Shown here piece by piece: positions 28,919 to 51,078 of a stretch of 59,163 nucleotides of DNA (position 1 is its first letter; every line of letters begins with the position of its first letter). The DNA lies in assembly GCA_023415375.1 (NCBI GenBank), contig JAEZKW010000104.1, positions 1 through 59,163 on the forward strand, given 5' to 3'. Source of the DNA: Bacillota bacterium (GTDB lineage Bacteria > Bacillota > UBA4882 > UBA8346). Below the pieces are notes generated by a model. The model saw only the letters and a program-made list of their open reading frames with translations, ran no database searches and was not told the DNA's origin. The position numbers and the translations under genes were made by a program.

Positions 28919-29094
28919 GTGTTCCATAAAACTAAACAAGCTATTATTAATTGTGTTCGGGAAAAATTTATTGAGATAGGTGGGGATGAATAATTAATAT
29001 GAAAGTTAATGATATTGGTCTTGTAAAAGTGAAAATATCTTTTACAACCGGAAGTTAGGTCATTATTAGATTTATAGCCTAAAAACCTGCTATA

Positions 29095-29145
29095 CGCCCT
29101 TTCACGGCGGTGACACGAGTTCGAACCTCGTTGGGACTACCAAAA
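29095..29145 (+). repeat. attR: orphan 3' part of tRNA-Glu (anticodon arm to CCA)
   Basis: 50 of 51 nt are identical to 8280..8330. The single difference is C versus T at T-loop position 60 (29126 versus 8311). No 5' half of a tRNA precedes it. Confidence 0.9.
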
Positions 29146-29162
29146 TTTAAAAAGTACAGTTA

Positions 29163-29190
29163 AAAGAGGTTTCTGACGAAACCTCTTTTT
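29163..29190 (+). terminator. rho-independent terminator, probably the original tRNA-Glu terminator displaced by island insertion
   Basis: AAAGAGGTTTC-TGAC-GAAACCTCTTT is followed by TTGT. It lies 18 nt after the tRNA fragment. Confidence 0.75.
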
Positions 29191-29617
29191 GTATTTATGG
29201 GGATAAAATGTATAGTACATGGCCAAAAATCAAATTTTGAAGATTTTACAGCACAGATTAAGGAAGACCTGATATTTGAGTCCGGAAAGTGTAAATTTTA
29301 AAATAGGAATAACAGAACAATAATATAAAACATGAAAGCCGGTTTTGTTGTTGCAGTACCGATATGTTTATTCGTCCTTACTAGAGTTTTGGTTATTTGG
29401 ACAACATTTCCCTAATTTAAATAAGAAGAGCACCCTCAGTTCAATACATCCAAGGTGCTCTTTTTTCATTGTCTACTCCCCTTTGCCGTGATTTTTTTCT
29501 GATCATTTTTCGCGGCAACCTTCCATTCAAATTTCTCCGGAAACTCTCTAATCTCCATAGGAAAAAAGGACCCTAAAAACGAGCACCATTGAAGGCGTTT
29601 TTTATTGAGGGACTCCG

Positions 29618-29652
29618 TTGACAAACAATTGGTATTATAATATAATACCAAT
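29618..29652 (+). promoter_or_regulatory. consensus promoter overlapped by a 23-nt perfect palindrome (candidate GntR/AraR-type operator)
   Basis: TTGACA (29618..29623), a 17-nt spacer, then TATAAT (29641..29646). The palindrome TTGGTATTATA-A-TATAATACCAA spans 29629..29651. ATG 29653 lies exactly 7 nt after the -10 hexamer and has no SD. Confidence 0.65.
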
Positions 29653-30525
29653 ATGAACAACTTAAAAGTATTTCAAAAAGGCTGGAACTATTCACAGGAT
29701 GGACCAGGCAACCGTCTGGTTTATCATTTACAAGGATGTAATATGCGTTGCCCCTGGTGCTCGAATCCTGAAGGTCTATCCATAGACGGTACTTTGATGG
29801 TAGACGAGGGAAAGCTTGTTGATGCCGTATGCCCTAAGGGAGCCATTCAAAACCAAAAGATAGACCGTACCGTATGCCTTTCGTGCCATAGTCGGGATTG
29901 TATCACCAAAAACAAGAATCTGGGAATCTGCTTTCCTTGTCAAGGGTATAGCGTTGAATCCCTTATTGGCGAAGCACAACGGGCAAGGTCGCTTTTTTAC
30001 GATGGGGGAGGGATCACCCTGACGGGCGGCGAGGCAACCCTTCAATTTGAAGCTGTAAAAGAATTATTGATTGCCCTAAAAGCTGTAAATATCAATACCG
30101 CGCTTGAAACGAATGGGACTCACCCCAGGTTGCCTGAGTTGTTCCCGTTAACCGATACCTTGATCATGGATATGAAGCACTATGATTCCAGTATTCATCA
30201 GAAAGTAATAGGAATCGGCAATGGGATGATCATCGGGAATATTCAGAAAGCGGTCCGGGAACATGCCCGAACTTGGCTGAGGATTCCCCTGATTCCCGGT
30301 TTTAATGATGCGGATGAGGATGCGCATCAGTTTGCCAAGTTTTTTAAGCAGCTGTCGGCTGGGGAAATTCTCATTGAAGTTCTTGCTTACCACGAGTTCG
30401 GCAAAGTGAAATGGAGCCAATGCGGAATGGAATATCCCTTTAAAACAGATGGTTTGCCGAAGGGAAGGCTTAAAGAGTTTACGGATATTTTAAAGCAATA
30501 TGATTTGAAGCTGATTCATACATAA
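29653..30525 (+). CDS. glycyl-radical enzyme activating protein (radical SAM)
   Basis: SQDGPGNRLVYHLQGCNMRCPWCSNPE carries the CX3CX2C cluster motif at 29737..29760. There is a Cys-containing insert, and GGEATL is present. It sits directly upstream of a glycyl-radical enzyme. Confidence 0.9.
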   Translation: MNNLKVFQKGWNYSQDGPGNRLVYHLQGCNMRCPWCSNPEGLSIDGTLMVDEGKLVDAVCPKGAIQNQKIDRTVCLSCHSRDCITKNKNLGICFPCQGYSVESLIGEAQRARSLFYDGGGITLTGGEATLQFEAVKELLIALKAVNINTALETNGTHPRLPELFPLTDTLIMDMKHYDSSIHQKVIGIGNGMIIGNIQKAVREHARTWLRIPLIPGFNDADEDAHQFAKFFKQLSAGEILIEVLAYHEFGKVKWSQCGMEYPFKTDGLPKGRLKEFTDILKQYDLKLIHT

Positions 30526-30543
30526 ATTTTAGGGGGTTACGTC

Positions 30544-32940
30544 ATGAAGTGGCAAAATGTATACACCAATGAAAAACTGCAACAGAATGTAGAATTATTG
30601 CTTGAAGAACAAAGAAAACAAAAACGGCTGGACGGTTGGTTTTTGATCAAAGAAATCCAGGCGCGTTATGAAAATCAATTTAAATCTCTAGACCCAGAAT
30701 TAAAAGGGGCCCAGCTGTTAAAGAAAGTAATCAGCGAATTGCCGCTTAGCATAAGCAAGTATGGGGTATTCGCCGGAACCCAAAATGATGCTTTCTCGCC
30801 TTCGTATGCCTTGATAAATCCGGCGTTTAAAGTGGAGTCTTTCGCAGGTTATTGTGACCCGACTGCAATATTTGATGATGTTGCTCCGAATGAAGAATTC
30901 ACCGCTGAGCGGATTAATAAAACCCGCACTTATACCAAAAACACCGACTATGTGCAAGAATTGGGCAAGGTTTACGACAAGTACCGTTTGGAAACTTCGG
31001 AAGCGGCCTTTTTCGTCGAACAAGTCACCGGACACTTAATTCCCGATTTTCGGCCGGCGCTAGCCGAGGGAGTGGAAAGCCTGCTTCATCAGATTCAAAC
31101 GAAGCTCAAAACCGCCAGTAAAGATAAAGCTCCCAAATATGAGGCCTTCGGCATCGCGCTGGAATCGGCGCTGATTTTGGCTGAACGCTATGCGGCCCTC
31201 GCCGCGGAATTGGCGGAAAAAGAGAAAGAACCCAGGAAAACTGAATTACAGCTGATTTCGGAGACTCTCCATAAAGTTCCGCGTTTCGGGGCGACCAACT
31301 TATTTGAAGCCATCCAATCCTTTATGATCTTATGGCAGGTTATGTGTAGTGAACAATCCCCCAATCCCTATGCGTTTTCGGTGGGAAACGCCGACCGGAT
31401 ATTCGAACCGTTCCGGGCCATGGAAAATTGCGAACGTAGCAGGGCGGCTTCTCTTTTTAAACATTTATTAGTGTTTTACAATGTAGGCGAACGGAGCTGG
31501 GCGATATCTCAGGATCTAATTATTGGCGGGCGTTCCATTGACGGTAGAGATCTTACCAATGAGACTTCCTATGCGCTGTTGGACGCTTATTACGAAACCA
31601 ATTTTCCCCAACCGATTTTATCGGTAAGACTTCACCGGAATACACCCGAACGGTTATTTGAAGAATTGGGACGATTTTTCTTTACGCCGGGTTGTCTTAC
31701 CCCTTCCTTTTTTAACGACGATTCCCTGTTTCCGATTTTGAAAAAGAACGGCGTCGCTGAAGCAGATTTGGAAAATTATGCAGTGGCCGGTTGTCAGGAA
31801 CCGTTAATCATGGGCCGGGACAATGGAAATACCACCAACAGCTGGCTTAATCTCGCCAAAATACTGGAGTTGGCTTTAAATAACGGCTGTTCTACTCTGA
31901 CTGGTAAAAAAATCGGCTTATCCTATGCAGAGTTGGGACTGGAGGATGACCCTTTAAGCGTTTTAAAAGGAGTACGGGAGGCTTTTGAAAAACAACTGGC
32001 CTACTTCGTTGATAAGATGGTTGATGCGGCGAATGGGTGTTCCAGGGTGGTCTCGTTGTTGCCGGTGCCGTTTTTGTCGTCGTTTATGGGTGGAATTGAG
32101 ACGGGAGTCGATACACGGGATATTCACAATCAGGGTACGAAGTATAATGGCAGCGGTTGTCTGATTCATGGACTTTCAGTCGTGACGGATTCTTTTATCG
32201 CTATCGATACACTGATTAAAGAACGGCCGGAAGATGCCGGACGTTTGTTAAGTGGCTTATGCAATAATTTTAAAGACGATGAAACCTTGTATCAATATCT
32301 GCGGGCCTGCGACAAATATGGCAATAATATCCCCACGGTAGACGAGGAAGCGGCTCGAGTTGCGGCTCATGTCTCCCGGCTGATAGCCGCAAAGAAAAAT
32401 TACCTGGGTAATCCATTCCGCCCCGATTGGAGCAGTCCTTCGACGCATCTATTATACGGATATTGGGTTGGCGCTACTCCGGACGGAAGAAAAGCAAGAG
32501 AGATGCTTAATTACGGATTGGATCCTTTATATGGAGAAGCAAGCTCCGGCATTGGATTTCGCATCTTGTCCTTGAAAAACTTGCCCTTCGAGTTGATGAA
32601 CGGTGGTTATGCCTCACACTTCGGCATTGATCCGAAGTATTTTCCGGAAGCAACCATGGCCGAAAAAGGAGCAGCTTTTCAAAAGCGAATCATTAATCCG
32701 TTGTTTTTCAGCTCTGAACAGGCTTTGGATCAGGAGCACTCCATCAATCCGTTTTATTTATATGTGAATGTGACCACCCCGGAAATGCTGAGGAAGGTAT
32801 TGGCCAATCCCAAAAAATATGCCCCTAGCGGCATCTATATTGTAAGAATCCATGGCACCTTTGTGAACTTTTTGGACTTGTCACCGGCCATCCAAAATGA
32901 TATTATTTTGCGGTTGGATTTAGAATCAACCAAAATGTGA
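30544..32940 (+). CDS. glycyl-radical enzyme of the PFL2/dehydratase-like class, substrate unknown
   Basis: The Cys loop is AVAGCQEP (Cys417, 31792..31794). GATPDGRKA is present. The C-terminal glycyl loop is VRIHGTF (Gly771, 32854..32856). The 798-aa length is typical. RBS AGGGGG. Confidence 0.85.
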   Translation: MKWQNVYTNEKLQQNVELLLEEQRKQKRLDGWFLIKEIQARYENQFKSLDPELKGAQLLKKVISELPLSISKYGVFAGTQNDAFSPSYALINPAFKVESFAGYCDPTAIFDDVAPNEEFTAERINKTRTYTKNTDYVQELGKVYDKYRLETSEAAFFVEQVTGHLIPDFRPALAEGVESLLHQIQTKLKTASKDKAPKYEAFGIALESALILAERYAALAAELAEKEKEPRKTELQLISETLHKVPRFGATNLFEAIQSFMILWQVMCSEQSPNPYAFSVGNADRIFEPFRAMENCERSRAASLFKHLLVFYNVGERSWAISQDLIIGGRSIDGRDLTNETSYALLDAYYETNFPQPILSVRLHRNTPERLFEELGRFFFTPGCLTPSFFNDDSLFPILKKNGVAEADLENYAVAGCQEPLIMGRDNGNTTNSWLNLAKILELALNNGCSTLTGKKIGLSYAELGLEDDPLSVLKGVREAFEKQLAYFVDKMVDAANGCSRVVSLLPVPFLSSFMGGIETGVDTRDIHNQGTKYNGSGCLIHGLSVVTDSFIAIDTLIKERPEDAGRLLSGLCNNFKDDETLYQYLRACDKYGNNIPTVDEEAARVAAHVSRLIAAKKNYLGNPFRPDWSSPSTHLLYGYWVGATPDGRKAREMLNYGLDPLYGEASSGIGFRILSLKNLPFELMNGGYASHFGIDPKYFPEATMAEKGAAFQKRIINPLFFSSEQALDQEHSINPFYLYVNVTTPEMLRKVLANPKKYAPSGIYIVRIHGTFVNFLDLSPAIQNDIILRLDLESTKM

Positions 32941-32952
32941 GGGTGTTAAAAA

Positions 32953-34005
32953 ATGCCGGAAAAAGAAGCGGCCGATAATCACCTTTATCTGAAGCTCCGG
33001 ATGGATCTGTGCCGGAAAATTTTTGAGGGCACTTATCAAGATGGCGAATTATTCCCCCCCGAGCGGGAAATGGCGTCACAGTTCGGAGTAAGCAGGGTAA
33101 CCATCCGTAAGACTTTGGAACTGTTGGAGAATGAAGCATATATCTCCCGGGTACAGGGAAGCGGTACTCGGGTTACCTTGCGGACCACGGGTTATCCGGG
33201 TACAATGGATATTTTGGCGTTGGTGGCTCCGGCCCAGAATAGTTTCTTTGCTTCATTCATTGACTTCTTCGAGTCGTTTGCCGAAAATAATAATTCGTTG
33301 GTCCTTTTTAAACAGGCCCGCAGTTCCGGGCGGTTCAAAATTGAGGATTACTTGTTCCGGCTGTTTCAAAAGAATATTCGTGACGTTATTCTGTGGTTGC
33401 CGGGTGAGATGATTGAGGCCAAGTATCTTCAACGCCTGCGTGGAATGGGTATGAATATTGTCTTTTTTGATGTGGTAACGGTCACTCCGTTTGCGGATTG
33501 CGTGAGCGTCGATAACTACCATGCCATCCAATCATTATATCGGTTTGTTACTTCCAAGGGGCATCAGGATATGCTTTATTTAGGCTGGGATAATCAGACC
33601 CTCTCGAGCGTCCGGGAACGGGAAAAGGCTTTTCAGGATGTTACTGCCGGAGGTCAACGGATTCACCGGCTGATTTGGGAGCAAAAAGGCAATTTTTTCA
33701 ATAATCTGACCGGGTTGATTCGCGAATTGGAAACCAGACAGGAAATGCCGACCTGTTTTATATGCGGTGACGGAGAAATCGGGATTGGTTTGCAAAAATT
33801 CCTGGCTGAAAGACCCGGTTCGAATCACCTGGCAGTTTGCGTCGATGACTTGCCGGGGGCACGGGAATTGCAACTTACAGTTTACGAGCAGCCACTTCAG
33901 AAACTGGCCCGCCAAGTCTATGAATGCCTATGCGCCCAAAACCGGGAATCCGATAGCTGGCGTGCTTCAAATTATTATGTTAAAGGCGAATTGATTATCC
34001 GGTAA
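32953..34005 (+). CDS. AraR-type regulator (GntR wHTH + LacI/GalR-like sugar-binding domain)
   Basis: The N-terminal part LFPPEREMASQFGVSRVTIRKTLELLENEAYISRVQGSGTRV is a GntR HTH. The ~270-aa C-terminal part has a periplasmic-binding-protein-like alternating pattern. Confidence 0.75.
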   Translation: MPEKEAADNHLYLKLRMDLCRKIFEGTYQDGELFPPEREMASQFGVSRVTIRKTLELLENEAYISRVQGSGTRVTLRTTGYPGTMDILALVAPAQNSFFASFIDFFESFAENNNSLVLFKQARSSGRFKIEDYLFRLFQKNIRDVILWLPGEMIEAKYLQRLRGMGMNIVFFDVVTVTPFADCVSVDNYHAIQSLYRFVTSKGHQDMLYLGWDNQTLSSVREREKAFQDVTAGGQRIHRLIWEQKGNFFNNLTGLIRELETRQEMPTCFICGDGEIGIGLQKFLAERPGSNHLAVCVDDLPGARELQLTVYEQPLQKLARQVYECLCAQNRESDSWRASNYYVKGELIIR

Positions 34006-34143
34006 TACTAAGTTGCATTCACATGGCATCTATGGATGCCGAAGGCATTTATAAATAAAATGAAACTTAGCATAAAAGACAAATCTGCACCAGTTCGTAT
34101 TTTGATTTGAATGCAAATTTATATTAATGTATCGAGGTGTGAT

Positions 34144-35517
34144 ATGAAGTTTGTGGGATTGGATATCGGAACGACTACCATCTGTGGAGTGGTCCTCGAT
34201 CCGGATGAACAGTCAATCGTCTATTCCATCGTTAAAAAAAACAGTGCGGCCATTCATGCTGAAAACAGTTGGGAGCAATTGCAGGACCCTCTGACCATCC
34301 TGGAGATTGCTGGTGAGATTTTGCATAGCCTTTGCACCAAGTATCCGGACATCAAAGGAATCGGTGTGACCGGTCAAATGCACGGTATCTTGTATGTCGA
34401 CAAATCCGGCAATGCCGTAAGCCCTTTGTATACCTGGCAAGATGGCCGGGGTAACCTGCCCTATCAAGACGGGAAAACTTATGCCGAGTATCTGGCCGCT
34501 CAAACAGGCTATTCGCTAGCGACCGGATTTGGACTGGTGACTCATTTTTATCAGTCCGTCCATCGCTTGGTCCCTAAAGAAGCTTGTGCCCTGTGTACTA
34601 TCCATGACTATCTGGTGATGCGGCTCGTTAATCTGGATAGGCCCTGTTGCGATCCTACCAATGCCGCAAGTTTAGGTTTCTTTAACCTGAAGGATCTGGA
34701 CTTCGACAGGAAAGCGCTTGCCGCAGTCGGAATCGACGCAGCCGTTCTCCCTACTGTTACGACTTCTTTGAAGGCGCTCGGAAAAACCAAGGATAATATC
34801 CCGGTATTTCCGGCGCTAGGGGATAATCAAGCCAGCTTTATCGGGGCAGTGCGGGATCCCAATATTTCTTTTTTGGTCAATGTAGGTACCAGTAGCCAGA
34901 TTTCTGCTTATACTCCTGAATTTGCCGTGATTTCCGGTATTGAACTCCGGCCGTTTCCCGGTGGCGGCTATTTGTTGGTCGGTGCTCCCCTGTGCGGCGG
35001 CAAGTCATATGCACTGCTGGAGACTTTTTTTAGAAGCGTATTAAAGCTCTTTACCAAGAAAGATTATGAAAGTCTCTATGAAACAATGAATCAAATTGAT
35101 CTTGAATCGCTGGTAAGCAACGATTTATTGAAGATTTCCACCAAATTTAGCGGTACCCGGAGTGATGCCACAGTCCGCGGTTCAATAGGCAATATCAGTC
35201 TTACCAATTTTAGCCCGGAGTATTTGATTGCGGGGTTCTTGGAAGGGGTTGCCGTTGAATTGCATGAGTTCTACAACGGCCTCCCAGTTTCCGTCCGTAA
35301 TGAATTTCAGCTGATGGCCGGTTCCGGGAACGGGATCCGGAAAAATAAGCTGCTCAGGAAGACGTTCGCCAGGGTATTTCAGATGAAAATGGAAGTCCCT
35401 TTATATGACGAAGAAGCCTCTTTGGGAGCGGCTCTATTGGCTTCCTCAGGCTACGGCCGTTTTCAAACCATCCAGTCCGCCATGAAGATCATTCATTACC
35501 AAAGGCAGGAAATTTAA
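34144..35517 (+). CDS. FGGY-family carbohydrate kinase, sedoheptulokinase-like
   Basis: MKFVGLDIGTTTICGVV is the phosphate-1 motif. GIGVTGQMHGILYVD..SPLYTWQDGRG matches the SHPK-like branch as I recall it. ATG 34144 follows GAGGTG. Confidence 0.75.
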   Translation: MKFVGLDIGTTTICGVVLDPDEQSIVYSIVKKNSAAIHAENSWEQLQDPLTILEIAGEILHSLCTKYPDIKGIGVTGQMHGILYVDKSGNAVSPLYTWQDGRGNLPYQDGKTYAEYLAAQTGYSLATGFGLVTHFYQSVHRLVPKEACALCTIHDYLVMRLVNLDRPCCDPTNAASLGFFNLKDLDFDRKALAAVGIDAAVLPTVTTSLKALGKTKDNIPVFPALGDNQASFIGAVRDPNISFLVNVGTSSQISAYTPEFAVISGIELRPFPGGGYLLVGAPLCGGKSYALLETFFRSVLKLFTKKDYESLYETMNQIDLESLVSNDLLKISTKFSGTRSDATVRGSIGNISLTNFSPEYLIAGFLEGVAVELHEFYNGLPVSVRNEFQLMAGSGNGIRKNKLLRKTFARVFQMKMEVPLYDEEASLGAALLASSGYGRFQTIQSAMKIIHYQRQEI

Positions 35518-35579
35518 CTTAAGAGATGAATAAACAATTAAAGGTGAAAACGATTTCCACGAAATCTTTGGGATGAATA

Positions 35580-35608
35580 TTTACAAATGCATGAATTTGG
35601 ATTATAAT
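35580..35608 (+). promoter_or_regulatory. sigma70-type promoter upstream of the ROK regulator
   Basis: TTTACA (35580..35585), a 17-nt spacer, then TATAAT (35603..35608). Confidence 0.55.
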
Positions 35609-35737
35609 AAACTTAATTAAAGTATATTATAAAGTTGTAAAGAAGGATGCAATATTAATTACACTTCGATTGATATCCGGAAATTTAACATTCAAAATAT
35701 TATCCGCATTACTTTAGAAAATGGACCCATCAGCAAG

Positions 35738-36844
35738 GTGGATATCGCTGAGAAACTGGGATTGACTTTGGTTACAGTTAATCAAATCACCAATAACCTG
35801 ATTAAAAAAGGGATTTTGATACAGGAAGGGGTCGCCGAATCTTCCGGGGGTCGGAGAGCCGGTTTGTATGCGGTAAATGCAGTTGCGTTTTATGTGGTGG
35901 GAATCAATATCGGTATTCGTTATGTTTCGATTGCGGTTGATAATTTGCGGATGGAGACAGTTTATACGGATAGCATCCGGTTGAATACCAAAAGTTCGCC
36001 GCAAGATGTTACCCGGCTGATCTGCGGCAAAATCAATCAGGTGCTGCAAATCCAACCGATAACCAAAACTAAATTGCTGGGCATCGGAGTGACGCTCCCG
36101 GGACTGGTGGATGGGGAAAAAGGTCAGGTTGTGCTGCTCCCGAACATGCCGGGGTGGGAGAATTTCCCTTTGAAAGAGGTTTTACAAAATGAGTTTCAGA
36201 CCTATGTTACCATCGAAAAAGATATTTATGGCAGTTTAATCTATCTGAAAAACCGCAAGATATTAACCGGTTCCAATGCTATGCTGTTTGCCATCAAGGG
36301 AGGTATCGGCGCGGCTGTGCTTTTAAACGGCAAACCGTACCGAGGTGAGAATGGCATAGCCGGTGAAATCGGGCACGCCTTGTTCCGAGTTAGCGGCGAT
36401 GGAAATGATGATAGCGACACCAGTTTTGAATCCTATGCTTCTGATTATGGCATTATTAACAAAGTCAAAGTAAAAAAAAGCGCCCAATTAACCGTTGAAG
36501 AGCTTGATGATCTCGACTTAACTTACATCATCAATTCTTGCCAGACCGGTGATGATACTTGCAAGGAAGTTCTGTTGGAAGCAGCCAAATATGTAGGAAT
36601 TATGCTTAGTAACGCCATCAAATTTTATGACCCCAAATGTATCATCATTTATTGCCGATGGATCAAAGAAGTGCCGGAAACCTTGGCTAAAATCGAAAAC
36701 ATCATCCAAAATAGCAATACCTTGATTAAAATGAACACCGAGATTCAAGTGATGTATCAGAAAGATATTTATCTTGAAGGAGCTGTTACCATCGTTTTTG
36801 AACATATGTTGGAAAGTATCGTTGATAATCCGCTGGTCGAGTAA
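35738..36844 (+). CDS. ROK-family transcriptional regulator (true start probably upstream at a non-canonical codon)
   Basis: The wHTH is ...ENGPISKVDIAEKLGLTLVTVNQITNNLIKKGIL. The ROK sugar-kinase-like body includes GEIGH. The frame is open from 35633, and ROK-like sequence (IRKFNIQNIIRITLENGPIS) precedes the first GTG. Confidence 0.8.
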   Translation: MDIAEKLGLTLVTVNQITNNLIKKGILIQEGVAESSGGRRAGLYAVNAVAFYVVGINIGIRYVSIAVDNLRMETVYTDSIRLNTKSSPQDVTRLICGKINQVLQIQPITKTKLLGIGVTLPGLVDGEKGQVVLLPNMPGWENFPLKEVLQNEFQTYVTIEKDIYGSLIYLKNRKILTGSNAMLFAIKGGIGAAVLLNGKPYRGENGIAGEIGHALFRVSGDGNDDSDTSFESYASDYGIINKVKVKKSAQLTVEELDDLDLTYIINSCQTGDDTCKEVLLEAAKYVGIMLSNAIKFYDPKCIIIYCRWIKEVPETLAKIENIIQNSNTLIKMNTEIQVMYQKDIYLEGAVTIVFEHMLESIVDNPLVE

Positions 36845-36903
36845 ATTTTTTGTCCAGTTAATAAATTACTTTAATAAAGTAACTAATTATAAGGAGATCA
36901 ATC

Positions 36904-38205
36904 ATGGTTGCAACGGAACTTAGGAAAGAAATTGCTTCAGAAGTCGACAAAATAGCGATTGTCGACCCCCATACCCATTTACGCGAGGATGATCTTTCTT
37001 CTCATGTCGTCGACATCTTATCCTACCATTGGATTCTTTCAGAATTGAACAGTGTCGGTATGGATTACGAAAAGACGCTGATGAACAAAGATTTGGACCT
37101 TGATATGAGGCTTAAAAGCGTTATTCCGTATTTCTCCAAGATGAGAAATACGGCGACAGCTCGCTGTGTTTATAACATCTTCAAGGGTTTATACGGTTTT
37201 CATGATCAATTGAATGAGGGAAATTATAAACAACTGCTGGATATATCAATCAAGAACAGTTCCAGGAGCGACTGGCCGGATACGGTGTTTCAAAAGGCAA
37301 ACTTAAACCGTTTTGCAACTTCCGTCGGAAATGCTAGCAAAACAGGGAAGGAAAGAAGCCAGTTCAGCTTAATGGTTGATTTGCATTACCTCTTTTGGCC
37401 AGCCGGTGCCACGGATCTTTTACCATGGTTTGGCGAATTTGCCGGGAATGAGACCGGATATCTGGAAGCACTGGAGAAAGTTGGGAGCTGTTCAATTGCT
37501 TCTATCAAGGATGTAAGGCAAGCGCTCCGAAATTTCATGACCGGTATCAATAAAGGAAGAGTGAAATTTTTCAACACTTTTGTGCCGATTGAATTCAGAT
37601 TTCGCAAAGTGGAGGATTCCACAGCAGAAAGAGCCCTTAAAGCCTTTAGAAAATCAAAAGGCCATTCGAAACAGGATCTTGAGATACTGGTGAGTTTTGT
37701 GACCTGGCAGATACTGGAGCTTTTAAATGAATTCGATACCACATTCCAGATTGCAGTGGGAGCTGAATATTTCATTTGCGGCGGGCGTTCGATCAGTCGG
37801 TTCGAATCTACTTGGGTTTCCGACATGGTGAAGGTTTGTTATGCGTTTCCCAAAATCAAATTTGATTTTATGAATGCTTCCTATGTAATGAATCACGAAA
37901 TGGCAGTCGCCGCCAAGATGATCCGAAATTTCTACATTCAAAACATGTGGTGGCATACTTATGTGCCTTCATGCATTAGTGCGCTCTATGAGCGATTGGA
38001 AATTGTTCCTGCCGTTAAATTGGGCGGGTTTTATTGCGATGCCTACTATTGTGAACTCACCTACGGGAAATTGATGATGGTTAAAGATACAATCATCGAT
38101 GTTTTAACTGCCAAGGTTGAGAATAACGTCTATAGTCTGGATTATGCAATCGAGATTGCTAATATACTTCTCAATAAAAATCCCCAAGAACTCTATCATT
38201 TATAG
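36904..38205 (+). CDS. amidohydrolase-fold protein, uronate-isomerase (UxaC)-like
   Basis: IAIVDPHTHL parallels the DYHCHL metal motif. SYHWILSEL, the MWWHTY stretch and the C-terminal GGFYCDAYY...E..YGK parallel UxaC landmarks from memory. The similarity is distant. Confidence 0.5.
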   Translation: MVATELRKEIASEVDKIAIVDPHTHLREDDLSSHVVDILSYHWILSELNSVGMDYEKTLMNKDLDLDMRLKSVIPYFSKMRNTATARCVYNIFKGLYGFHDQLNEGNYKQLLDISIKNSSRSDWPDTVFQKANLNRFATSVGNASKTGKERSQFSLMVDLHYLFWPAGATDLLPWFGEFAGNETGYLEALEKVGSCSIASIKDVRQALRNFMTGINKGRVKFFNTFVPIEFRFRKVEDSTAERALKAFRKSKGHSKQDLEILVSFVTWQILELLNEFDTTFQIAVGAEYFICGGRSISRFESTWVSDMVKVCYAFPKIKFDFMNASYVMNHEMAVAAKMIRNFYIQNMWWHTYVPSCISALYERLEIVPAVKLGGFYCDAYYCELTYGKLMMVKDTIIDVLTAKVENNVYSLDYAIEIANILLNKNPQELYHL

Positions 38206-38332
38206 GCGGCTCAACCACTACGAATAGGATTGTAAATTTTGGTGTCGCCCGAAAAGGAGGTGTTGCCAATCAATATTAGAATAGGATGTTTTACAGAACA
38301 ATCATTCATCATTATTTGAGGGAGGACTTGCA

Positions 38333-39346
38333 ATGAAGAAGATAGTTTTGGTTTCGAGTTTGGTGGTTTTAGTTGCCCTTTTAGTTGGTTCTTTTGCTTA
38401 TGCTGCTAAAAAATATTATGTTGGTGTTGCAATTTGCAAATTTGATGATACTTTTTTAGCCGGTGTCCGGGATGCCATTAGCACTGCTGCAAAGGGAAAA
38501 GCAGCAAGAGTTGATATTGTTGATTGTCAACTTTCCCAGCCCACTCAGAATGACAAAGTTGACCTTTTCATTACCAAAAAAGCAAATGTTTTAGCGGTAA
38601 ACCCGGTTGACCGAACCGCCGCTGGCGTTATTGTCGATAAAGCAAAAAAAGCCAATATTCCAGTGGTCTTTTTCAATCGTGAACCGTTGCCGGAAGATAT
38701 GCAGAAATGGGATAAAATGTATTATGTAGGTGCCAAAGCTGAACAATCCGGTGCGCTTCAAGGGCAACTTATCGTTGATTACTGGAAGTCCCATCCTGAA
38801 GCGGATAAGAACCATGATGGAGTGCTTCAATATGTTATGATTACCGGAGAACCCGGACACCAGGATGCTGAATTACGGACTAAATATTCAGTTGATACTA
38901 TCCAAAAAGCCGGAATTAAGGTAGAGAAATTGGCTCAGGATACGGCAATGTGGAATCGGGTTCAAGGTCAGGAAAAAATGGCTGCTTTTGTTGCCCAATT
39001 CGGTAATAAGATTGAGGCTGTTCTTGCCAATAACGACGATATGGCTCTCGGAGCGATTGAAGCCTTAAAATCAGCAGGATACTTCAAAGAAGGTAAATAC
39101 GTACCGGTTGTTGGTGTTGATGCCACGGTTCCCGGAGTGAAGGCTATTCAAGATGGCACTATGCTCGGAACCGTTTTAAATGATGCCAAGAATCAAGGAA
39201 AAGCAACATTTGACATTGCTTATTTGCTGGCACAAGGCAAGAAGCCGACCAAAGCCAATACCGGCTATGAATTTACCGATGGTAAATATGTATGGATTCC
39301 TTATAAAAAGGTTACCAAAGATAATTTAAAAGCTCTTTCTTTATGA
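38333..39346 (+). CDS. mglB: galactose/glucose-type periplasmic binding protein
   Basis: Long collinear similarity to E. coli MglB as remembered: YYVG..QSG..QG, GEPGHQDAELRTKY, DTAMWNRVQGQEKM, NKIEAVLANNDDMALGAIEALK, GTVLNDAKNQGKATFD. The signal peptide has no lipobox. Confidence 0.85.
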   Translation: MKKIVLVSSLVVLVALLVGSFAYAAKKYYVGVAICKFDDTFLAGVRDAISTAAKGKAARVDIVDCQLSQPTQNDKVDLFITKKANVLAVNPVDRTAAGVIVDKAKKANIPVVFFNREPLPEDMQKWDKMYYVGAKAEQSGALQGQLIVDYWKSHPEADKNHDGVLQYVMITGEPGHQDAELRTKYSVDTIQKAGIKVEKLAQDTAMWNRVQGQEKMAAFVAQFGNKIEAVLANNDDMALGAIEALKSAGYFKEGKYVPVVGVDATVPGVKAIQDGTMLGTVLNDAKNQGKATFDIAYLLAQGKKPTKANTGYEFTDGKYVWIPYKKVTKDNLKALSL

Positions 39347-39488
39347 GATACTCTTAAAGGCAAACAATATTTAAAATTTTGTCTGTAAGGGAGCAGTTGC
39401 TCGATTGCTCCCTTATTTTTATGATATCGAAAAATGCCAAAGTATATCTTATGGAGTAATGTTAATGCGATTACGGGGGGCATTTGAT

Positions 39489-41003
39489 ATGAGAGAAAAT
39501 GAGTTTTTGCTGGAAATGGATAACATATCGAAAGAATTTCCCGGTGTCAAGGCGCTTGACGATGTAACTTTAAAAGTTCGTCCGGGTACTGTACACGCTT
39601 TGATGGGTGAGAACGGCGCCGGCAAGTCGACGTTGATGAAATGTTTATTTGGGATTTATAAACAAGACGCCGGTGAAATCGTATTGAACGGCCGAAAAAT
39701 TGATATCGACAATTCCAAGATTGCGCTAGATTATGGCATCTCCATGATTCACCAAGAACTTCTTCCGGTACCCTTCCGCAGTGTTATGGAGAATATATGG
39801 TTAGGCAGATTTCCTCTAAAAGGCTTAGGCCCTTTGAATTTCATTGATCATAAAAAAATGTATCATGATACAGCTGAATTGTTTCAAAGACTGGAGATGG
39901 ATATCAATCCGGCAACTATCGTTGGAAGTATGTCAGTGTCAAAAATCCAGTCGATGGAAATTGCCAAAGCCATTTCCTATAATTCTAAGGTAATCATTAT
40001 GGATGAACCTACTTCTTCATTAACTGAAAATGAAGTCGTTCATCTTTTCAAAATCATTCGGGATCTTCGGGCCAGCGGTGCAGCAATTATTTACATTTCC
40101 CATAAAATCGAGGAGATTTTGCAAATTTCCGATGAAGTGACGATCATGCGGGATGGTCAGCGGGTAGGGACTTGGCCGGCATCAGAATTGACTGACGATT
40201 TAATTATTTCCAAGATGGTAGGCAGGGATTTGACCCATCGTTTCCCCGTACGCAGCAATGTACCTGGGAAAGTGCTTCTCAGAGTCGAAGGGCTTACTTC
40301 ACCTTCCGCTAAATCTTTTAGGGATATTTCATTTGAATTGCGCAGAGGTGAGATTTTAGGCATCGGTGGACTGGTCGGGGCACAACGCACCGAACTGATT
40401 GAAGCTTTATTCGGACTACGGATGATTGTATCGGGCAAAATTTATCTGAATGATAAAGAAGTCACAATTAAGACGCCAGAAGAAGCCAAAAAATACAAAC
40501 TGGCTTTACTCACCGAGGATCGGCGTGTATCGGGTATTTTTGGAGCGCTATCGGTGTTGGAAAATTCGCTAATTGCCAATTTGAGCCGTTATATCAAGTT
40601 CGGTTTACTAAACGAGAAGAAGCGAAAAGAAGATGGAGAAAATATTATTACTCAACTGAAGGTTAAAACTCCGTCTAGCAAAACCCTGATTAAGGATTTA
40701 TCAGGCGGTAACCAACAAAAAGTGTTAATTGGCAGATGGTTGCTTACAGAACCCGATATTTTGCTACTTGACGAACCGACCCGCGGGATCGATGTTGGGG
40801 CAAAATTTGAAATATATACGATCATTGCTGAACTAGCCAAACAGGGGAAAAGCATTATTATGATTTCTTCCGAAATGCCGGAGCTGATCGGAATGTCCGA
40901 CCGGATTATGGTCATGTGCGAAGGGCGCCTCTCCGGTTTTGTAGACGGCAAAAAAGCGACTCAAGAAGAGATTATGCGTCTGGCAGCCAAGTTTATAGCA
41001 TAA
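39489..41003 (+). CDS. mglA: CUT2 sugar ABC transporter ATPase (duplicated NBD)
   Basis: GENGAGKST, MDEPTSSL, the second signature LSGGNQQKVLIGRWL and LLLDEPTRGID are present. ATG 39489 follows GGGGGG; the track start 39405 is an extension. Confidence 0.9.
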   Translation: MRENEFLLEMDNISKEFPGVKALDDVTLKVRPGTVHALMGENGAGKSTLMKCLFGIYKQDAGEIVLNGRKIDIDNSKIALDYGISMIHQELLPVPFRSVMENIWLGRFPLKGLGPLNFIDHKKMYHDTAELFQRLEMDINPATIVGSMSVSKIQSMEIAKAISYNSKVIIMDEPTSSLTENEVVHLFKIIRDLRASGAAIIYISHKIEEILQISDEVTIMRDGQRVGTWPASELTDDLIISKMVGRDLTHRFPVRSNVPGKVLLRVEGLTSPSAKSFRDISFELRRGEILGIGGLVGAQRTELIEALFGLRMIVSGKIYLNDKEVTIKTPEEAKKYKLALLTEDRRVSGIFGALSVLENSLIANLSRYIKFGLLNEKKRKEDGENIITQLKVKTPSSKTLIKDLSGGNQQKVLIGRWLLTEPDILLLDEPTRGIDVGAKFEIYTIIAELAKQGKSIIMISSEMPELIGMSDRIMVMCEGRLSGFVDGKKATQEEIMRLAAKFIA

Positions 41004-41037
41004 TTCTTATGGCTTAATTGAAGGAGGGTTTCAATCG

Positions 41038-42045
41038 ATGGATTTTAGAAAAGTATTAAAGTATTTAAGTGATCATGCTATTTACTTTGTATTAGCATTA
41101 TTAGTCATTGTCATTGCTTTCATTGATCCGACTTTTTTATCATTGACTTGTTTGCGTGATATTTTGTTGCAGTCTTCAACCCGTATTATTATTGCAATGG
41201 GCGCCTTTTTTGCCATATTGATTGCAGGCTGTGATCTTTCGGCTGGACGTATGGTGGGTTTTGGAGCTGTTCTTGCGGCTTCAATGTTGCAGGCTCCCGA
41301 TTATCTGCGATTGTTTTATCCGAACATGCCGCAACTCCCGTTATGGTTACCGATTTTGATTGCGATCGTAGTTGGCTTATTCTTCGGTTTATTTAACGGA
41401 TTTACAGTTGCTAGGTTAGGCTTGCCTCCATTTATCGCTACTTTAGGTTCGATGGTTATTATTTATGGCATTAACTCCATTTATTTCGACATGCCGCCCA
41501 ATAATTCACAACCGATTGGCGGTTTACGGGCTGATTTTACTGAATTAGGCACCGGATCTTTCGGTCCTCAGGCGTTTTCGATTCCCTATATTTTGGTCAT
41601 TGCAGTTATAATAGCATTTTTGATGTGGGTATTAATGAATAAAACCCGGTTTGGTAAGAACTGCTATGCAATGGGCGGAAATATAAACGCTGCGAAGGTT
41701 TCCGGAATCAATGTCGCCAAGACAACGATGGTTATGTTTACCATAGCCGGAGGATTATTTGCCCTTGGTGGTGTGTTGGAAGCAGCCAGGACAGGCGGCG
41801 CTACCAATAACTATGGAAACGGTTACGAATTTGACGCTATCACAGCCTGTGTCGTCGGTGGTGTTTCCACAACCGGCGGTATCGGAACCATTCAGGGAAT
41901 TTTAGCCGGTGTATTTATTTTAACCATTATTAACTATGGTCTTACATTTATTGGGCTTAATCCCTATTGGCAGCAAATTATCAAAGGTTTAATCATCGTA
42001 TTTGCTGTTGCTGTCGATATCCGGAAATATCTAGCAAAGAAATAA
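41038..42045 (+). CDS. mglC: CUT2 sugar ABC transporter permease
   Basis: The protein is polytopic with a BPD_transp_2-like pattern (GGVSTTGGIGTIQG). RBS GAAGGAGGG. Confidence 0.88.
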   Translation: MDFRKVLKYLSDHAIYFVLALLVIVIAFIDPTFLSLTCLRDILLQSSTRIIIAMGAFFAILIAGCDLSAGRMVGFGAVLAASMLQAPDYLRLFYPNMPQLPLWLPILIAIVVGLFFGLFNGFTVARLGLPPFIATLGSMVIIYGINSIYFDMPPNNSQPIGGLRADFTELGTGSFGPQAFSIPYILVIAVIIAFLMWVLMNKTRFGKNCYAMGGNINAAKVSGINVAKTTMVMFTIAGGLFALGGVLEAARTGGATNNYGNGYEFDAITACVVGGVSTTGGIGTIQGILAGVFILTIINYGLTFIGLNPYWQQIIKGLIIVFAVAVDIRKYLAKK

Positions 42046-42119
42046 GTCGAATCTGCATGAAAACGGGAATCAATTTGGGGGAACCAAGGTACTGTTGTAG
42101 TTTGGTTCCCTTTTATTGA

Positions 42120-44288
42120 ATGAAGAGGTGTTCGAAAGTGTTGGGTAAAAATAAAAATCATCCAGCTCAAATCATAGCTACGGAAAAGATAAATCTGACA
42201 AAACATATCGAAAGAACGCCTGGATTTTTAAAAATAACGAAGGTAATCAGCAATATATCGATTCGGCGAAGGCTCATCATCTTCTTTTTGATACTATCAA
42301 TTATCCCGATTGCTTTTATCGGCTATTTGTCGTATTCTTCTTCGAAAAATGCCATTATCAGCAAGATTGCCACTTATTCGCAAGAAAGTCTCAGCCAAGC
42401 ATCCATGAATCTCCAATTGGAACTCAATAAATATCAAAGTTTATCATTACAATTAGCGATTGATAATAAAAAAAATAACGAGATTGTCTCTTTTATTAAT
42501 AACGGCTCAGAAGCGGAACAACTAAAAGAATCATTACAATCAACAGTCGCTACAGATGAAATTGTCCGTTCAGTTTTTATCGGTTCTTTGAAAGATGATT
42601 CATGCGTCGGAGCAGGCTTTGAAGATCCCAATACGAATAAACTGTATTCCAAGCTTAAGAAAACAGCTGCTTTCAAAGAGGCCCTTCATTCAAAAACGCA
42701 AATATATTGGGGCATTTATGAAAAAGATGTTATCATGATCAGATTGATTCATAATGTTAACACGGGTGAATCCATCGGAGTCTATGGCGTAGTTTTCTTC
42801 GGTTATAAATTGACTAAAAAGATGAGCCCAGGCCGTTACGAAAATGCAAATATCTCTTCCGTAAAAGATCTTCCATATACGGTTATTGTAAATGCAAAAG
42901 GGGAGATATTGACTTCACCCCATGTTGACGATGTGGGAGTAAAAATCCCGGACCTATTACACAACCGGAATGGGATAGGAATCTTACAGCAAAATGAGAA
43001 TTTGAAAGGTTTCTTTTATGATAAAATTCATGGTGAAAATGTTTTAATTACATATAACCGGATTAAGGATATGAGTTGGTATTTGATGGGTGTTTCTTTA
43101 AACTCATATTTATATAAAGAAACAGATGAAGTAGGTTGGTTCACATTTATACTGGCAGTTATCATTAGTATCTTTGCGATAATTGTTTCATTACTGGTTT
43201 CTTTAAGTATTTCAGTCCCTTTAGATAGGATGAAGGATGTTATGAAAACCGCTGAGGACGGTAATTTGTCCATCAGGGTCATTGTAAATACACAGGATGA
43301 ATTGGCTGAAGTAGGAAACAGTTTTAATAGCATGCTTGAAAAAATAGCCCAATTCATTATTGAAACAAAAGATACCATTCATAAAGTTTTGGACCAGAGC
43401 ACAGTCTTGGAAGAAAGTTCAAATCAGTCGGCTCAAGCGGCTGAAAGTATAGCTCAGGCGATGGATCAAATAACGAAAGGAACCTTGGAACAAACTCAAG
43501 AAACGGAGATGTCTTCCAGACAAATGATTGATCTGGCGAGGCAGATCGAAAATGCCGTGTCTGAAGCGGCTGCGGTTGAAAAAATCACTGGAAATGCGAA
43601 GGATTTAAGTTCGGATTCAAAGGGAGTCGTAGAACAGTTGATTCAAAAAACCAATGACACCGATAAGATTACCAGCGATATTCTGAAAGATATCAATGAT
43701 TTGCGTTGCAGCGCCGAAACAATTGGAAACATTACCGAAGTTATTTCAAACATAGCGGAACAAACCAATCTGTTGGCTTTAAATGCCAGTATTGAGGCTG
43801 CCAGGGCCGGAGAAATGGGACGGGGCTTCGCAGTAGTGGCTGATGAAATTAATGTATTAGCGGCTCAGTCACGGAAAGCGGTTAAGACGATTGATGATAT
43901 TTTAAAAACGATAGAAGAAAAAACCGCGGCTTCGGCTCAGACTGCCGGAAACGCTTATTCGATATTGGTGGAGCAAAGAGCAGCGGTTCATCACACCCGG
44001 GAGGCCTTTGATCATATCATTGTTTCAATGGATGAGGTTGTAAAACGAATCGGTACAGTAAACGGAATGATTCATCAGATTAATGATTTTAAGAATGTTA
44101 TGGGCCAGGTTATTGCCAACATTAGTTCCGTTTCAGAAGAGACTGCCGCTTCAGCCGAAGAGGTATCGGCTGCCTCTGAGGAACAAACAGCATCTTCAGA
44201 CCAATTAAAATTTTTGGCCATGGATTTACGCCGTATGGCTGAACATCTGGTTTCCGATATGGCCAAATTTCAAATTGAAGAAGAATAA
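42120..44288 (+). CDS. methyl-accepting chemotaxis protein with Cache-like periplasmic sensor
   Basis: The order is TM, a ~270-aa sensor, TM, HAMP, then the signalling hairpin [31 protein letters not shown]. The start is uncertain (ATG 42120 or GTG 42138). Confidence 0.9.
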
Positions 44289-44475: not shown

Positions 44476-45315
44476 TTATTTACCCTTTGTGACCGTCAGT
44501 AACCCTAAAATATCAGGTCCGGTATGTACGGCGAGTACCGGGGATATCGGTGCCATGTAGGGTTTCATACCGATTGCAGCTTCAACTTCTTTTGCATATT
44601 CTTGGGCTTCTTCGATATTATCGCCATAGTGTAAGATAAGGGCTTCCAGGCCAAGCTCAGCCCTTTCCCTTGCTAATTCAATCAATCGGTTCTTTCCTGC
44701 TTTCGTGGTTCTTACTTTCTCGAAGGCTGTCATTTTACCGTCCGGCTCAAACCAAATAATTGGTTTAATTTGAATAATAGAACCAATTAAAGCTTCAGCG
44801 CCGGTGAGACGGCCACCTGCGTGAAGATATCGCAAGGATTCGACCAGAAAAAAGACACGGCAGCGAGAATGCAGGTCTTCCAAATATTTGATAATTTCGG
44901 CTCTGGAAGCGCCCCCTCCTGCCATTTCCCGGGCTTTGATTGCCATATAGGCCAAGCAGAAGCCACTCAGTCTAGAATCAAATACTGATATTTTATCGGT
45001 TTCCAACATTTGCGACGTTGTACAGACCGTATTAAAGGTACCGGAAATCCCGCTGGAAAATATCAAACATATAATCTCATCGCCAGCTTCGATAATGGGT
45101 TTAAATGCCTCAAGGTAAGTTAAAGGAGAGGGTTGTGAAGTAGTGAAGCGGATTCCGGCCCGTTGGTTTTTGAAAAACTCTTCGTATTTCAGATCAAAAA
45201 GCTCCCGCTTGGAGATTTCACCTTGGTTGATAATGATTGGAATTGGATGAATATTGTATTTCTGGTAATCTTCAAGCGTCATGGATGAAGTGGTATCAGT
45301 AAAGATCTGAATCAT
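44476..45315 (-). CDS. DegV-family fatty-acid-binding protein
   Basis: IQIFTDTTSSMT, SQPSP and GPDILGL fit the DegV pattern. The protein is 279 aa. RBS AGGAGG. Confidence 0.85.
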   Translation of the reverse strand: MIQIFTDTTSSMTLEDYQKYNIHPIPIIINQGEISKRELFDLKYEEFFKNQRAGIRFTTSQPSPLTYLEAFKPIIEAGDEIICLIFSSGISGTFNTVCTTSQMLETDKISVFDSRLSGFCLAYMAIKAREMAGGGASRAEIIKYLEDLHSRCRVFFLVESLRYLHAGGRLTGAEALIGSIIQIKPIIWFEPDGKMTAFEKVRTTKAGKNRLIELARERAELGLEALILHYGDNIEEAQEYAKEVEAAIGMKPYMAPISPVLAVHTGPDILGLLTVTKGK

Positions 45316-45496
45316 TGGAGACCTCCTAAAAATCTACAATTCGACATAATTTTCTCGTTCAATTATAAACAGAATAGCCAGTCCCTTACTCTGTCCTGAG
45401 TAGACTTGCTGGGATGACCATAAAAGAATTATTCGAGGTTTCCAAAATAAATCCTTTTCGACATGTTTTTAGTTATTTGATTATTATTGCGTTATA

Positions 45497-51076: not shown

Positions 51077-51078
51077 TT

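Follow-up and report, generated by a model that had tools for sequence, protein, structure and literature searches.

A tightly conserved family of glycyl radical enzymes linked to a sugar kinase: a candidate radical C-O lyase for polyols in anaerobic bacteria

Glycyl radical enzymes (GREs) are the main means by which strict anaerobes accomplish the hard steps at C-O, C-N, C-S and C-C bonds, and each newly assigned clade of these enzymes has so far led to a new metabolic route. The GREs with a Cys-x-Glu (CxE) motif, in which the roles of Cys, Glu and His have been described, include six C-O eliminases (GD, PD, HpfG, HypD, HpyG and HpzG) and three isomerases (HplG, YbiW and PflD), among which YbiW and PflD open 1,5-anhydroglucitol-6-phosphate and 1,5-anhydromannitol-6-phosphate to yield 1-deoxyfructose-6-phosphate that is then split by an aldolase; many GRE clades are still unassigned (PMC13450708, a June 2026 review from the Drennan laboratory). 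Here we describe a GRE family that is absent from the inventory of characterized enzymes in that review and on which we found no paper in the literature. The family is represented by a 798-amino-acid protein encoded in a contig of a Bacillota bacterium (JAEZKW010000104.1, assembly GCA_023415375.1), the whole of which, 59,163 nucleotides in length, is hereinafter called the window. An initial annotation of the window, made from the sequence alone, considered this family to be uncharacterized, a view that stands, and sugar-directed GRE chemistry to be undescribed as well, a view that is outdated given that YbiW and PflD (8id7, 8id0 and 8yjo, the 'GRE isomerases'), the only characterized GREs that act on sugars, have been known since 2024 to use sugar phosphates.

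The closest homologs of the window GRE are 58-65% identical to it, match the PF02901 domain only, and come from both Bacillota (Christensenella, Cellulosilyticum, Hydrogenoanaerobacterium and Oscillospiraceae) and Bacteroidota (Mangrovibacterium, Sunxiuqinia and Tannerellaceae). The family is further represented by more than 555 metagenome matches, its habitats are sediments, digesters, rumen and the human gut, and one cluster of members, named Dorea longicatena, comprises 2086 sequences on at least 1000 contigs. Among 118 full-length members, 253 of the 798 positions are nearly invariant, with the most extended conservation in the stretches A-G-C417-Q-E419-P-L-I-M-G and Y-I-[MV]-R768-I-H770-G771-T-F-V-N-F-L-D-L-S. 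All characterized isofunctional groups leave this protein outside, as had been predicted: it scores 255.4 bits against the model of the PFL2/glycerol dehydratase subfamily (TIGR01774, cut-off 678) and 45-195 bits against the equivalogs for HypD, CutC, HpsG, HpfG, PFL, IAD and HPAD (cut-offs of about 1000-1150), and its identity to solved or characterized GREs is 19-28%. The best solved relatives are glycerol dehydratase (GDH) of Clostridium butyricum (DhaB1, 1r8w), propanediol dehydratases (5i2g and 9rco), HypD, PflD and YbiW. In a MAFFT alignment, the window GRE is 26.7% identical to GDH, 27.6% to HypD, 23.1% to Escherichia coli YbiW and 26.0% to PflD, whereas GDH, YbiW and PflD are 38-43% identical among themselves; the window family is an outgroup to this whole set and, by all these measures, a distinct, tightly conserved and biochemically uncharacterized family. 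An AlphaFold2 model (predicted local distance difference test 84, predicted template modeling (TM) score 0.90), which was compared with known structures using Foldseek, superposes on more than 40 GREs (TM 0.73-0.80, 19-24% identity), so the protein is predicted to adopt the PFL-like ten-stranded alpha/beta barrel that it would share with GDH and propanediol dehydratase (TM about 0.8).

A search of 1.84 billion representatives at 50% identity yielded three full-length members of the family (61, 57 and 46% identical to the window GRE) and a sister clade of approximately 750-residue GREs that are 33-37% identical to it over their full length (our representatives P0136, P0138, P0140 and P0165). 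These shorter, uncharacterized proteins share with the window GRE an otherwise unique combination, the CQE motif and the His before the radical Gly, but differ in their RVHG[Y/M/F]S loop and in being detected by PF01228; the one genomic context seen for this clade was an unrelated one that contained an AraC regulator and a nucleoside hydrolase, with no adjacent activase or FGGY kinase, and offered no functional clue, and neither did the neighborhood of the 46%-identical relative, P0124. Another relative, P0128 (746 amino acids, 38% identical), has Asp in place of the catalytic Cys (VVGDELP) and an RVPG loop, and is probably a non-catalytic paralog of the window GRE lineage. That the window GRE itself might be an inactive paralog was considered and rejected: unlike in the relatives of the P0128 kind, all its catalytic residues are invariant.

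The Cys loop of the window GRE (AVAGCQEP, residues 413-420; 31780-31803) contains a single catalytic Cys followed by x-Glu, which places the protein in the CxE class, and C417 and E419, together with the predicted radical-site glycine G771 (32854-32856) and H164, are invariant in all 118 members; both motifs lie exactly where the initial annotation had placed them, and its call of an eliminase-class Cys loop holds for the entire family. Gly771 aligns with the radical Gly of GDH, HypD, YbiW and PflD, and His164 with the general acid His164 of GDH, which is also retained in HypD, YbiW and PflD. The surrounding Gly loop, R768-I-H-G771-T-F, differs at two positions from the usual R-V-[A/S/C]-G-[Y/F/W], and it is because of this departure that the Gly_radical model PF01228 gives no match to the window GRE at E<=0.001. 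The aminoacyl radical enzymes are defined by replacement of the radical-site Gly with Ala, Ser or Thr (PMC13450708); given the invariance of Gly771, assignment to this group was rejected. Among the full-length representatives checked (P0121-P0165), the CQE Cys loop occurs with no other Gly loop than R[I/V]HG, with the qualification that in one CQE sequence a Gly loop could not be detected and that the search pattern scored two R[I/V]HG sequences wrongly; this pairing suggests that the two loops, which come together in the active site, have changed in concert. Conceivably, the co-variation of Gln418 and His770, the neighbors of the radical Cys and Gly, also affects how the radical is stored or transferred. 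In the corresponding loops, GDH and propanediol dehydratase have CVE and RVAGYS, although these enzymes, which are 22-27% identical to the window GRE, resemble it in the single Cys-x-Glu, His164, the predicted C-terminal radical Gly and the adjacent gene for a radical S-adenosylmethionine (SAM) activase.

The substrate pocket was mapped through a sequence alignment at approximately 25% identity and not on coordinates, using GDH residue numbers that we take from the structural literature on this enzyme and that the reconstructed GDH sequence reproduced. At the positions of GDH H281, S282, Y339, V434, W445, H446, D447 and Y640, the window GRE has Y276 (Y or F in the family), A277, S322, Q418, N429, T430, T431 and S630, respectively, and these replacements are invariant or nearly invariant within the family, so that of the glycerol-binding residues H164, S282, Y339, D447 and Y640 only H164 is kept. 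The resulting side chains are smaller and more polar, which would fit a larger polyhydroxylated ligand and argues against glycerol or propanediol. The counterparts in YbiW (H282, S283, Y344 and R453) and in PflD (S265, S266, G325, H432, D433 and Y617) differ from the window residues as well. In addition, R317, H542 and H692, which are invariant in the family, replace the G, V and N of the other enzymes aligned. To probe for a phosphorylated substrate, the basic residues specific to YbiW and PflD were compared with the window family, in which conservation was confined to peripheral positions.

Gene neighborhoods (loci are numbered with an L) were compared by tblastn searches, with the window proteins as queries, of 8 loci from genomes, 10 from protein look-up and 80 from metagenomes, and by de novo clustering of the neighboring open reading frames (ORFs) in 95 non-redundant loci; 43 loci that extend at least 4 kb on both sides of the GRE were treated as fully flanked. 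By tblastn, the genes for the activase, the GRE and an FGGY-family kinase occur together in nearly all loci, in both Bacillota and Bacteroidota; by ORF clustering, the activase is present in 85 of the 95 loci (more by tblastn) and the kinase in 69, and 40 of the 43 fully flanked loci encode the kinase. With this level of conservation across two phyla, the link of the GRE to sugar metabolism, which the initial annotation had expected to recur in other genomes, is conserved and not accidental. The remaining neighbors vary: there are ROK regulators in 26 loci, an AraR-like regulator in 22, a zinc-dependent alcohol dehydrogenase similar to galactitol-1-phosphate 5-dehydrogenase in 21, CUT2 sugar ATP-binding cassette (ABC) transporters in about 19, a class-I-MPI-like cupin directly 3' of the kinase in 17, DeoR regulators in 14, a rhamnulokinase-like kinase in 10 and a fructose-6-phosphate aldolase (309 bits, equivalog cut-off 214) in 7. 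GmhA-like SIS proteins, DUF4432 and D-lyxose isomerase are found as well, and gut loci encode psicose-epimerase-, GatY- and LacC-like proteins. In Bacteroidota, the module is embedded in SusC/SusD loci with three glycoside hydrolase (GH) genes of family GH32 and a sugar transporter of the major facilitator superfamily (MFS), and GH3, GH51 and GH94-like genes adjoin it at other loci. As predicted, aldehyde dehydrogenase, microcompartment shell, and sulfite or amine genes appear as GRE partners neither in the window nor as recurrent neighbors elsewhere (in L014, the microcompartment genes some 8 kb upstream of the GRE are part of a cluster of their own). GDH and propanediol dehydratase, in contrast, are accompanied by alcohol or aldehyde dehydrogenases or a microcompartment, where the window GRE has a sugar kinase, regulators and transporters.

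Two further aspects of these neighborhoods deserve mention. In the loci of the Dorea type (L092, L076 and L067), the GRE gene lies in a large island with a second FGGY kinase, a D-psicose-3-epimerase equivalog, a rhamnulokinase-like kinase, a FucA-like aldolase, the fructose-6-phosphate aldolase and a DUF4867/ureidoglycolate-lyase-like cupin, an arrangement suggestive of a locus that serves several rare sugars or polyols. Separately, URO-D-family proteins are encoded beside members of the GRE family in three lineages (L013, L060 (c72) and L104), with three copies in Christensenella tenuis.

The activase contains the CX3CX2C motif (CNMRCPWC, residues 29-36), again as quoted in the initial annotation. 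The activases of eliminases usually contain two ferredoxin-like motifs; in those of the window family, the homolog alignment reveals a single auxiliary four-Cys motif, C-X14-C-X2-C-X4-C (C60-X14-C75-X2-C78-X4-C83 in the window protein). The kinase, judged by its scores, appears to represent an unassigned FGGY subfamily: its best NCBIfam match is XylB (121 bits, cut-off 380), the GlpK model yields 88 bits (cut-off 590), the best PDB match is glycerol kinase at 63 bits, and its orthologs at other GRE loci are 39-51% identical to it. The activase, GRE, AraR-like regulator and kinase genes are probably co-transcribed.

The predicted regulation of this four-gene unit is also conserved. Promoters, operators and terminators were called as pattern or consensus matches (Table 1). 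Promoter P1, which immediately precedes the activase gene, overlaps a perfect 25-bp palindrome that occurs once in the window (0 expected in shuffled sequences) and is probably the operator of the AraR-like regulator, which in turn would probably be a repressor of P1. The pattern TGGTA-N11-TACCA, mostly in the form TGGTAT-N9-ATACCA, recurs 5' of the activase gene in 10 other loci with an AraR-like regulator just 3' of the GRE (L001, L014, L017, L019, L020, L025, L026, L030, L058 and L061) and in L024, where the sequence ends before the position of the regulator; L021 and L022 contain variants with an altered spacer, and the motif was not found 5' of the activase in the Dorea-type loci (whose regulator is 34-38% identical), L066 or L070. 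The recurrence of the motif amounts to a phylogenetic footprint, in support of an autoregulated operon. A Shine-Dalgarno sequence cannot be seen 5' of the activase start codon, which, with P1 ending 7 nucleotides before the ATG, makes the transcript look leaderless; the GRE operon may thus be expressed from a leaderless mRNA. A second promoter-like site in front of the ROK gene suggests at least two transcription units, one comprising the activase, GRE, regulator and kinase genes, and the other the ROK, UxaC-like, mglBAC and methyl-accepting chemotaxis protein (MCP) genes. It is therefore better to divide the locus into a core module, an accessory isomerase and a neighboring module for hexose uptake and chemotaxis than to treat it as the single wired pathway of eleven genes originally envisaged.

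On balance, we slightly favor the interpretation that the window GRE, encoded within a four-gene operon, is a new radical C-O lyase or dehydratase of the CxE type, with a C4-C6 polyol or anhydro-polyol as its substrate. If it works like GD, YbiW and PflD, the radical SAM activase would place a radical on Gly771, from which it would move to Cys417; Cys417 would then abstract a hydrogen from one of the substrate's carbinol carbons, Glu419 would deprotonate the carbinol hydroxyl, and His164 would protonate the leaving oxygen on the neighboring carbon. The C-O bond would thereby be cleaved, with loss of water or opening of a cyclic ether ring, and return of the hydrogen would give a deoxy-keto sugar. 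The core operon (activase, GRE, AraR-like repressor and FGGY kinase) would be driven by the consensus promoter, the -10 box of which lies under the palindromic operator, and an imported sugar-like inducer would probably release the repressor. The kinase and the lineage-specific isomerases (UxaC-like in the window; MPI-like, GmhA-like SIS or lyxose isomerase elsewhere), joined in Dorea by fructose-6-phosphate aldolase, would feed the product into glycolysis. The presence of polyol-dehydrogenase-like enzymes, isomerases of the manno/fructo type, GH32 loci, a laminarin-type locus and, occasionally, the fructose-6-phosphate aldolase suggests a C4-C6 substrate of the mannose/fructose series, most likely a sugar alcohol or anhydro-alditol, either free or phosphorylated by the FGGY kinase, which could accordingly be placed before or after the GRE in the pathway. 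The M-chains of laminarin end in mannitol. The substrate proposed at the outset, a hexose-like sugar, a polyol or a phosphorylated derivative, is supported in part by the conserved link to a sugar kinase, its novelty as a GRE substrate apart. A more specific proposal, which we put forward only tentatively, is that the CQE/RIHG family is the first group of GREs to dehydrate a sugar alcohol larger than glycerol (such as mannitol, sorbitol, erythritol or their phosphates) or to open a non-phosphorylated anhydro-sugar, and that the FGGY kinase, an isomerase or an aldolase then processes the deoxy-ketose.

Several other interpretations have to be weighed against the radical C-O lyase. GDH is the best match of the window GRE both by sequence (1r8w, 1.8e-86 with the family profile) and by fold (top of the Foldseek list), and the best PDB matches of the FGGY protein are glycerol kinases, as might be expected of a divergent B12-independent glycerol or 1,2-propanediol dehydratase that, together with a divergent glycerol kinase, takes part in glycerol dismutation. 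The identity to GDH, however, is about 27%, the glycerol contacts are replaced invariantly or nearly so, the kinase scores poorly against both the glycerol kinase structures and the GlpK model, 1,3-propanediol dehydrogenase is missing, along with aldehyde dehydrogenase and microcompartment genes, from the window and from the recurrent neighbors, and the context consists of sugar transporters, sugar isomerases and glycoside hydrolases; we rejected this identification for its misfit with pocket and context and consider it very unlikely. A closer parallel is provided by YbiW and PflD, which have the CxE motif, His164 and a location in carbohydrate uptake loci in common with the window GRE. The E. 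coli ybiW and pflD genes adjoin fsaA or fsaB and genes of the phosphotransferase system (PTS), and in the Dorea-type loci a fructose-6-phosphate aldolase gene that scores above the equivalog cut-off is found approximately 1-4 kb 3' of the GRE. One can therefore imagine a kinase-dependent, non-PTS 'anhydroglycolysis' in which 1,5-anhydroglucitol or 1,5-anhydromannitol, imported by ABC or MFS transporters, is converted by the FGGY kinase to the 6-phosphate and by the GRE to 1-deoxyfructose-6-phosphate, to be split by the aldolase; the mannose/fructose flavor of the accessory isomerases would be in keeping with such a route. Yet the window GRE is far more distant from YbiW and PflD than these are from each other and from GDH, its pocket positions match neither, the aldolase is missing from most loci, and the recurrent isomerases would have no role on a 1-deoxy ketose; moreover, these isomerases and the polyol-dehydrogenase-like enzyme have no counterpart in the YbiW/PflD pathway, in which the substrate is phosphorylated on entry through the PTS, whereas the window family combines ABC or MFS import with an FGGY kinase, and no PTS genes were found in the window locus or in those homologous loci whose genes were listed. 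By sequence, pocket and context, the window family is neither YbiW, PflD nor any other of the CxE-type enzymes in that review, and this scenario strikes us as rather improbable.

A different radical reaction, on a carbohydrate-derived acid or ether, such as decarboxylation or elimination of methanol from an O-methyl sugar, with the kinase and isomerases working up the product, is likewise unlikely in our estimate, notwithstanding that the CxE motif is not exclusive to dehydratases, that UxaC relatives normally act on uronic acids, that the family has invariant basic residues of its own, and that URO-D-family proteins, which include corrinoid methyltransferases, recur near some members. The transporters in these loci are of the neutral-sugar type (CUT2 ABC and MFS Sugar_tr), uronate-pathway genes and glucuronidases were not found nearby, and the URO-D genes occur in a minority of loci. 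As for chance placement of an independent activase-GRE pair among sugar genes, with uninformative neighbors, the window is indeed dense in genes for sugar utilization, and mglBAC and MCP are not conserved partners; but the kinase persists next to the GRE in two phyla amid otherwise variable neighbors, the regulator and operator are conserved, and searches started with the UxaC-like protein arrive beside the GRE. Synteny already contradicts this interpretation, which we find scarcely credible. The radical C-O lyase interpretation, for its part, has to contend with several considerations. The CxE motif is also present in GRE decarboxylases, and C-O cleavage is thus not proven; the family-specific R317, H542 and H692 might bind an anion, a hint of an anionic group in the substrate; and the variation among the accessory genes may mean that there are several feeder routes or simply that sugar genes cluster, with the aldolase present in only 7 loci and on the opposite strand. 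The distant alignment behind the pocket analysis and the pattern matches behind the transcription signals weigh in the same direction, as does the assignment of the substrate by context, which, together with the precedent of sugar-directed GREs, weakens the lead.

The window locus comprises 10 ORFs on the plus strand between 29653 and 44288 (Table 1) and not eleven as first counted; the genes named in the initial annotation are all present at their positions, and the Pfam and NCBIfam models uphold the labels given to the activase, the GRE, the regulator, the FGGY and ROK proteins, the Mgl importer and the MCP. With this count, the atypical Gly loop and the presence of at least two transcription units as corrections, what had been observed is largely borne out, and its interpretation is supported in part. 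The gap between the activase and GRE genes is 18 bp, and a convergent DegV gene 3' of the MCP gene forms the right boundary of the locus. For two genes, the public assembly calls shorter versions that look more plausible: the kinase from 34144 and mglA from 39465, the longest-ORF start of the latter being a TTG within the hairpin that follows mglB.

Table 1. Genes and putative transcription signals of the window GRE locus, by position in the window
Feature	Position	Strand	Remarks
Terminator-like hairpin	29162-29189	+	12-bp perfect stem then T-run; closes upstream GH94-like gene, left boundary
Promoter P1, TTGACA-17-TATAAT	29618-29646	+	12/12 consensus matches; 7 nt 5' of activase ATG
Perfect 25-bp palindrome, ATTGGTATTATA-A-TATAATACCAAT	29628-29652	.	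Overlaps P1 -10 box; probable AraR-like operator
GRE activase (radical SAM)	29653-30525	+	TIGR02494, 188.6 bits (cut-off 174)
GRE, 798 aa	30544-32940	+	PF02901, 5e-109
AraR-type regulator	32953-34005	+	Pfam: GntR helix-turn-helix and Peripla_BP (LacI-type sugar-binding) domains
FGGY-family carbohydrate kinase	34111-35517	+	FGGY_N and FGGY_C domains
Promoter-like site P2	35580-35608	+	11/12 matches; 5' of ROK gene
13-bp imperfect palindrome	35602-35632	+	Overlaps P2; probable ROK operator
ROK-family (NagC-like) transcriptional regulator	35738-36844	+	PF00480 and full-length NagC-like match
UxaC-like amidohydrolase-superfamily protein, 433 aa	36904-38205	+	PDB 4i6v, 4e-27; HxH motif (VDPHTHL)
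MglB-type glucose/galactose-binding protein	38333-39346	+	45% identity to E. coli MglB
14-pair hairpin then T-run, 3' of mglB	39385-39416	+	Attenuator-like element
MglA ATPase	39405-41003	+	NF008215, 740 bits, just under cut-off
MglC permease	41038-42045	+	NF007014, 438 bits, above equivalog cut-off
MCP	42120-44288	+	HAMP and MCPsignal domains; unassigned sensor domain

The UxaC-like protein was originally described as similar to uronate isomerases, and this holds with reservations. It has no Pfam or NCBIfam match, including the UxaC model PF02614; its match to 4i6v ('Amidohydrolase 2') is clear and that to the uronate isomerase BH0493 is faint (E 0.12), but its distant relatives are named 'glucuronate isomerase' by JGI and one of them matches PF02614. 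With the UxaC/BH0493 family it has in common the length, the amidohydrolase superfamily and the N-terminal HxH, and it differs in that its close homologs (at least 64% identical) lie beside the GRE and not in hexuronate operons. 'UxaC-like' thus seems a fair label, although by model score the protein is not a family member, and it is probably an aldose-ketose isomerase. Homologs that are 64-75% identical adjoin the activase and GRE genes in L016, L027, L105 and L106, the latter two having been found by a search that started from the UxaC-like protein itself. This gene is rarer than the core genes but specific, being located beside the GRE in five of the five loci inspected, and is a lineage-restricted accessory of the GRE module.

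The Mgl proteins and the MCP do not share this association. The window MglB, which, like MglA, scores just under its NCBIfam cut-off, retains all 10 of the residues that we take, from the E. coli structure, to contact the sugar in the glucose/galactose-binding protein (D14, F16, N91, H152, D154, R158, W183, N211, D236 and N256), and MglBAC looks like an ordinary glucose/galactose (hexose) importer, as had been proposed. The role of a partner in the GRE pathway does not hold: no counterparts of MglB, MglA, MglC or the MCP are conserved at other GRE loci, where the transporters are different CUT2 systems and the binding proteins do not keep the contact residues, and we rejected mglBAC as the importer of the pathway for these reasons. 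In the GRE locus, then, mglBAC and the MCP form a neighboring uptake and chemotaxis module outside the conserved pathway. The upstream region (9383-28918), with three GH16, two GH94-like and one GH116 gene, an AraC-type two-component system and an SBP_bac_1 ABC importer, is a beta-glucan (laminarin-type) utilization region, next to which a glucose importer and a chemoreceptor make sense independently. Both GH94-like proteins match their Pfam models weakly and may belong to related phosphorylase families.

A few features of the surrounding DNA were noted along the way. The 730-bp spacer 5' of the GRE promoter contains a second terminator-like hairpin (29423-29470; GAGCACC...GGTGCTC followed by a T-run), and the interval 29200-29470 may hold a small transcript or ORF. 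Just 5' of the first terminator, between the GH94-like gene and the GRE operon, a degenerate tRNA-like sequence (29068-29139; Rfam tRNA model, 25.3 bits against a gathering score of 29, with no ARAGORN call) may be the remnant of an integration site. Farther upstream, tRNA-Lys(TTT) and tRNA-Glu(TTC) genes are followed, within 8097-8986, by a match to the catalytic domain of group II introns (RF00029, 55.9 bits, 8911-8986), beside which there is no long ORF on the plus strand. On the minus strand, 44476-55912 encodes a DegV/FakB-like protein and then a BatA/BatB/BatD-type VWA operon with a MoxR-like ATPase, neither of which has a relation to the GRE locus.

We regard the locus as a genuine lead toward a new function among GREs, strengthened by the synteny across phyla, the conserved operator and the presence of the family in Dorea longicatena, and this family probably marks an anaerobic route for a sugar-alcohol-like compound. 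The conserved operator and the AraR-like sensor provide a direct handle on the inducer, and the family would also test whether a His beside the radical Gly is compatible with normal glycyl radical chemistry. Identification of the substrate would extend anaerobic metabolism by a carbohydrate or polyol pathway and could account for what becomes of a dietary or algal sugar alcohol. If the enzyme indeed dehydrates polyols, anaerobes, including Dorea longicatena of the human gut, would be able to ferment these over-reduced compounds in a redox-neutral manner; the conversion of mannitol to pyruvate, 1,2-propanediol and water would be balanced, and it is tempting to speculate that a route from mannitol, or its phosphate, to 1-deoxyfructose, or 1-deoxyfructose-6-phosphate, would make the fermentation of mannitol redox-neutral.

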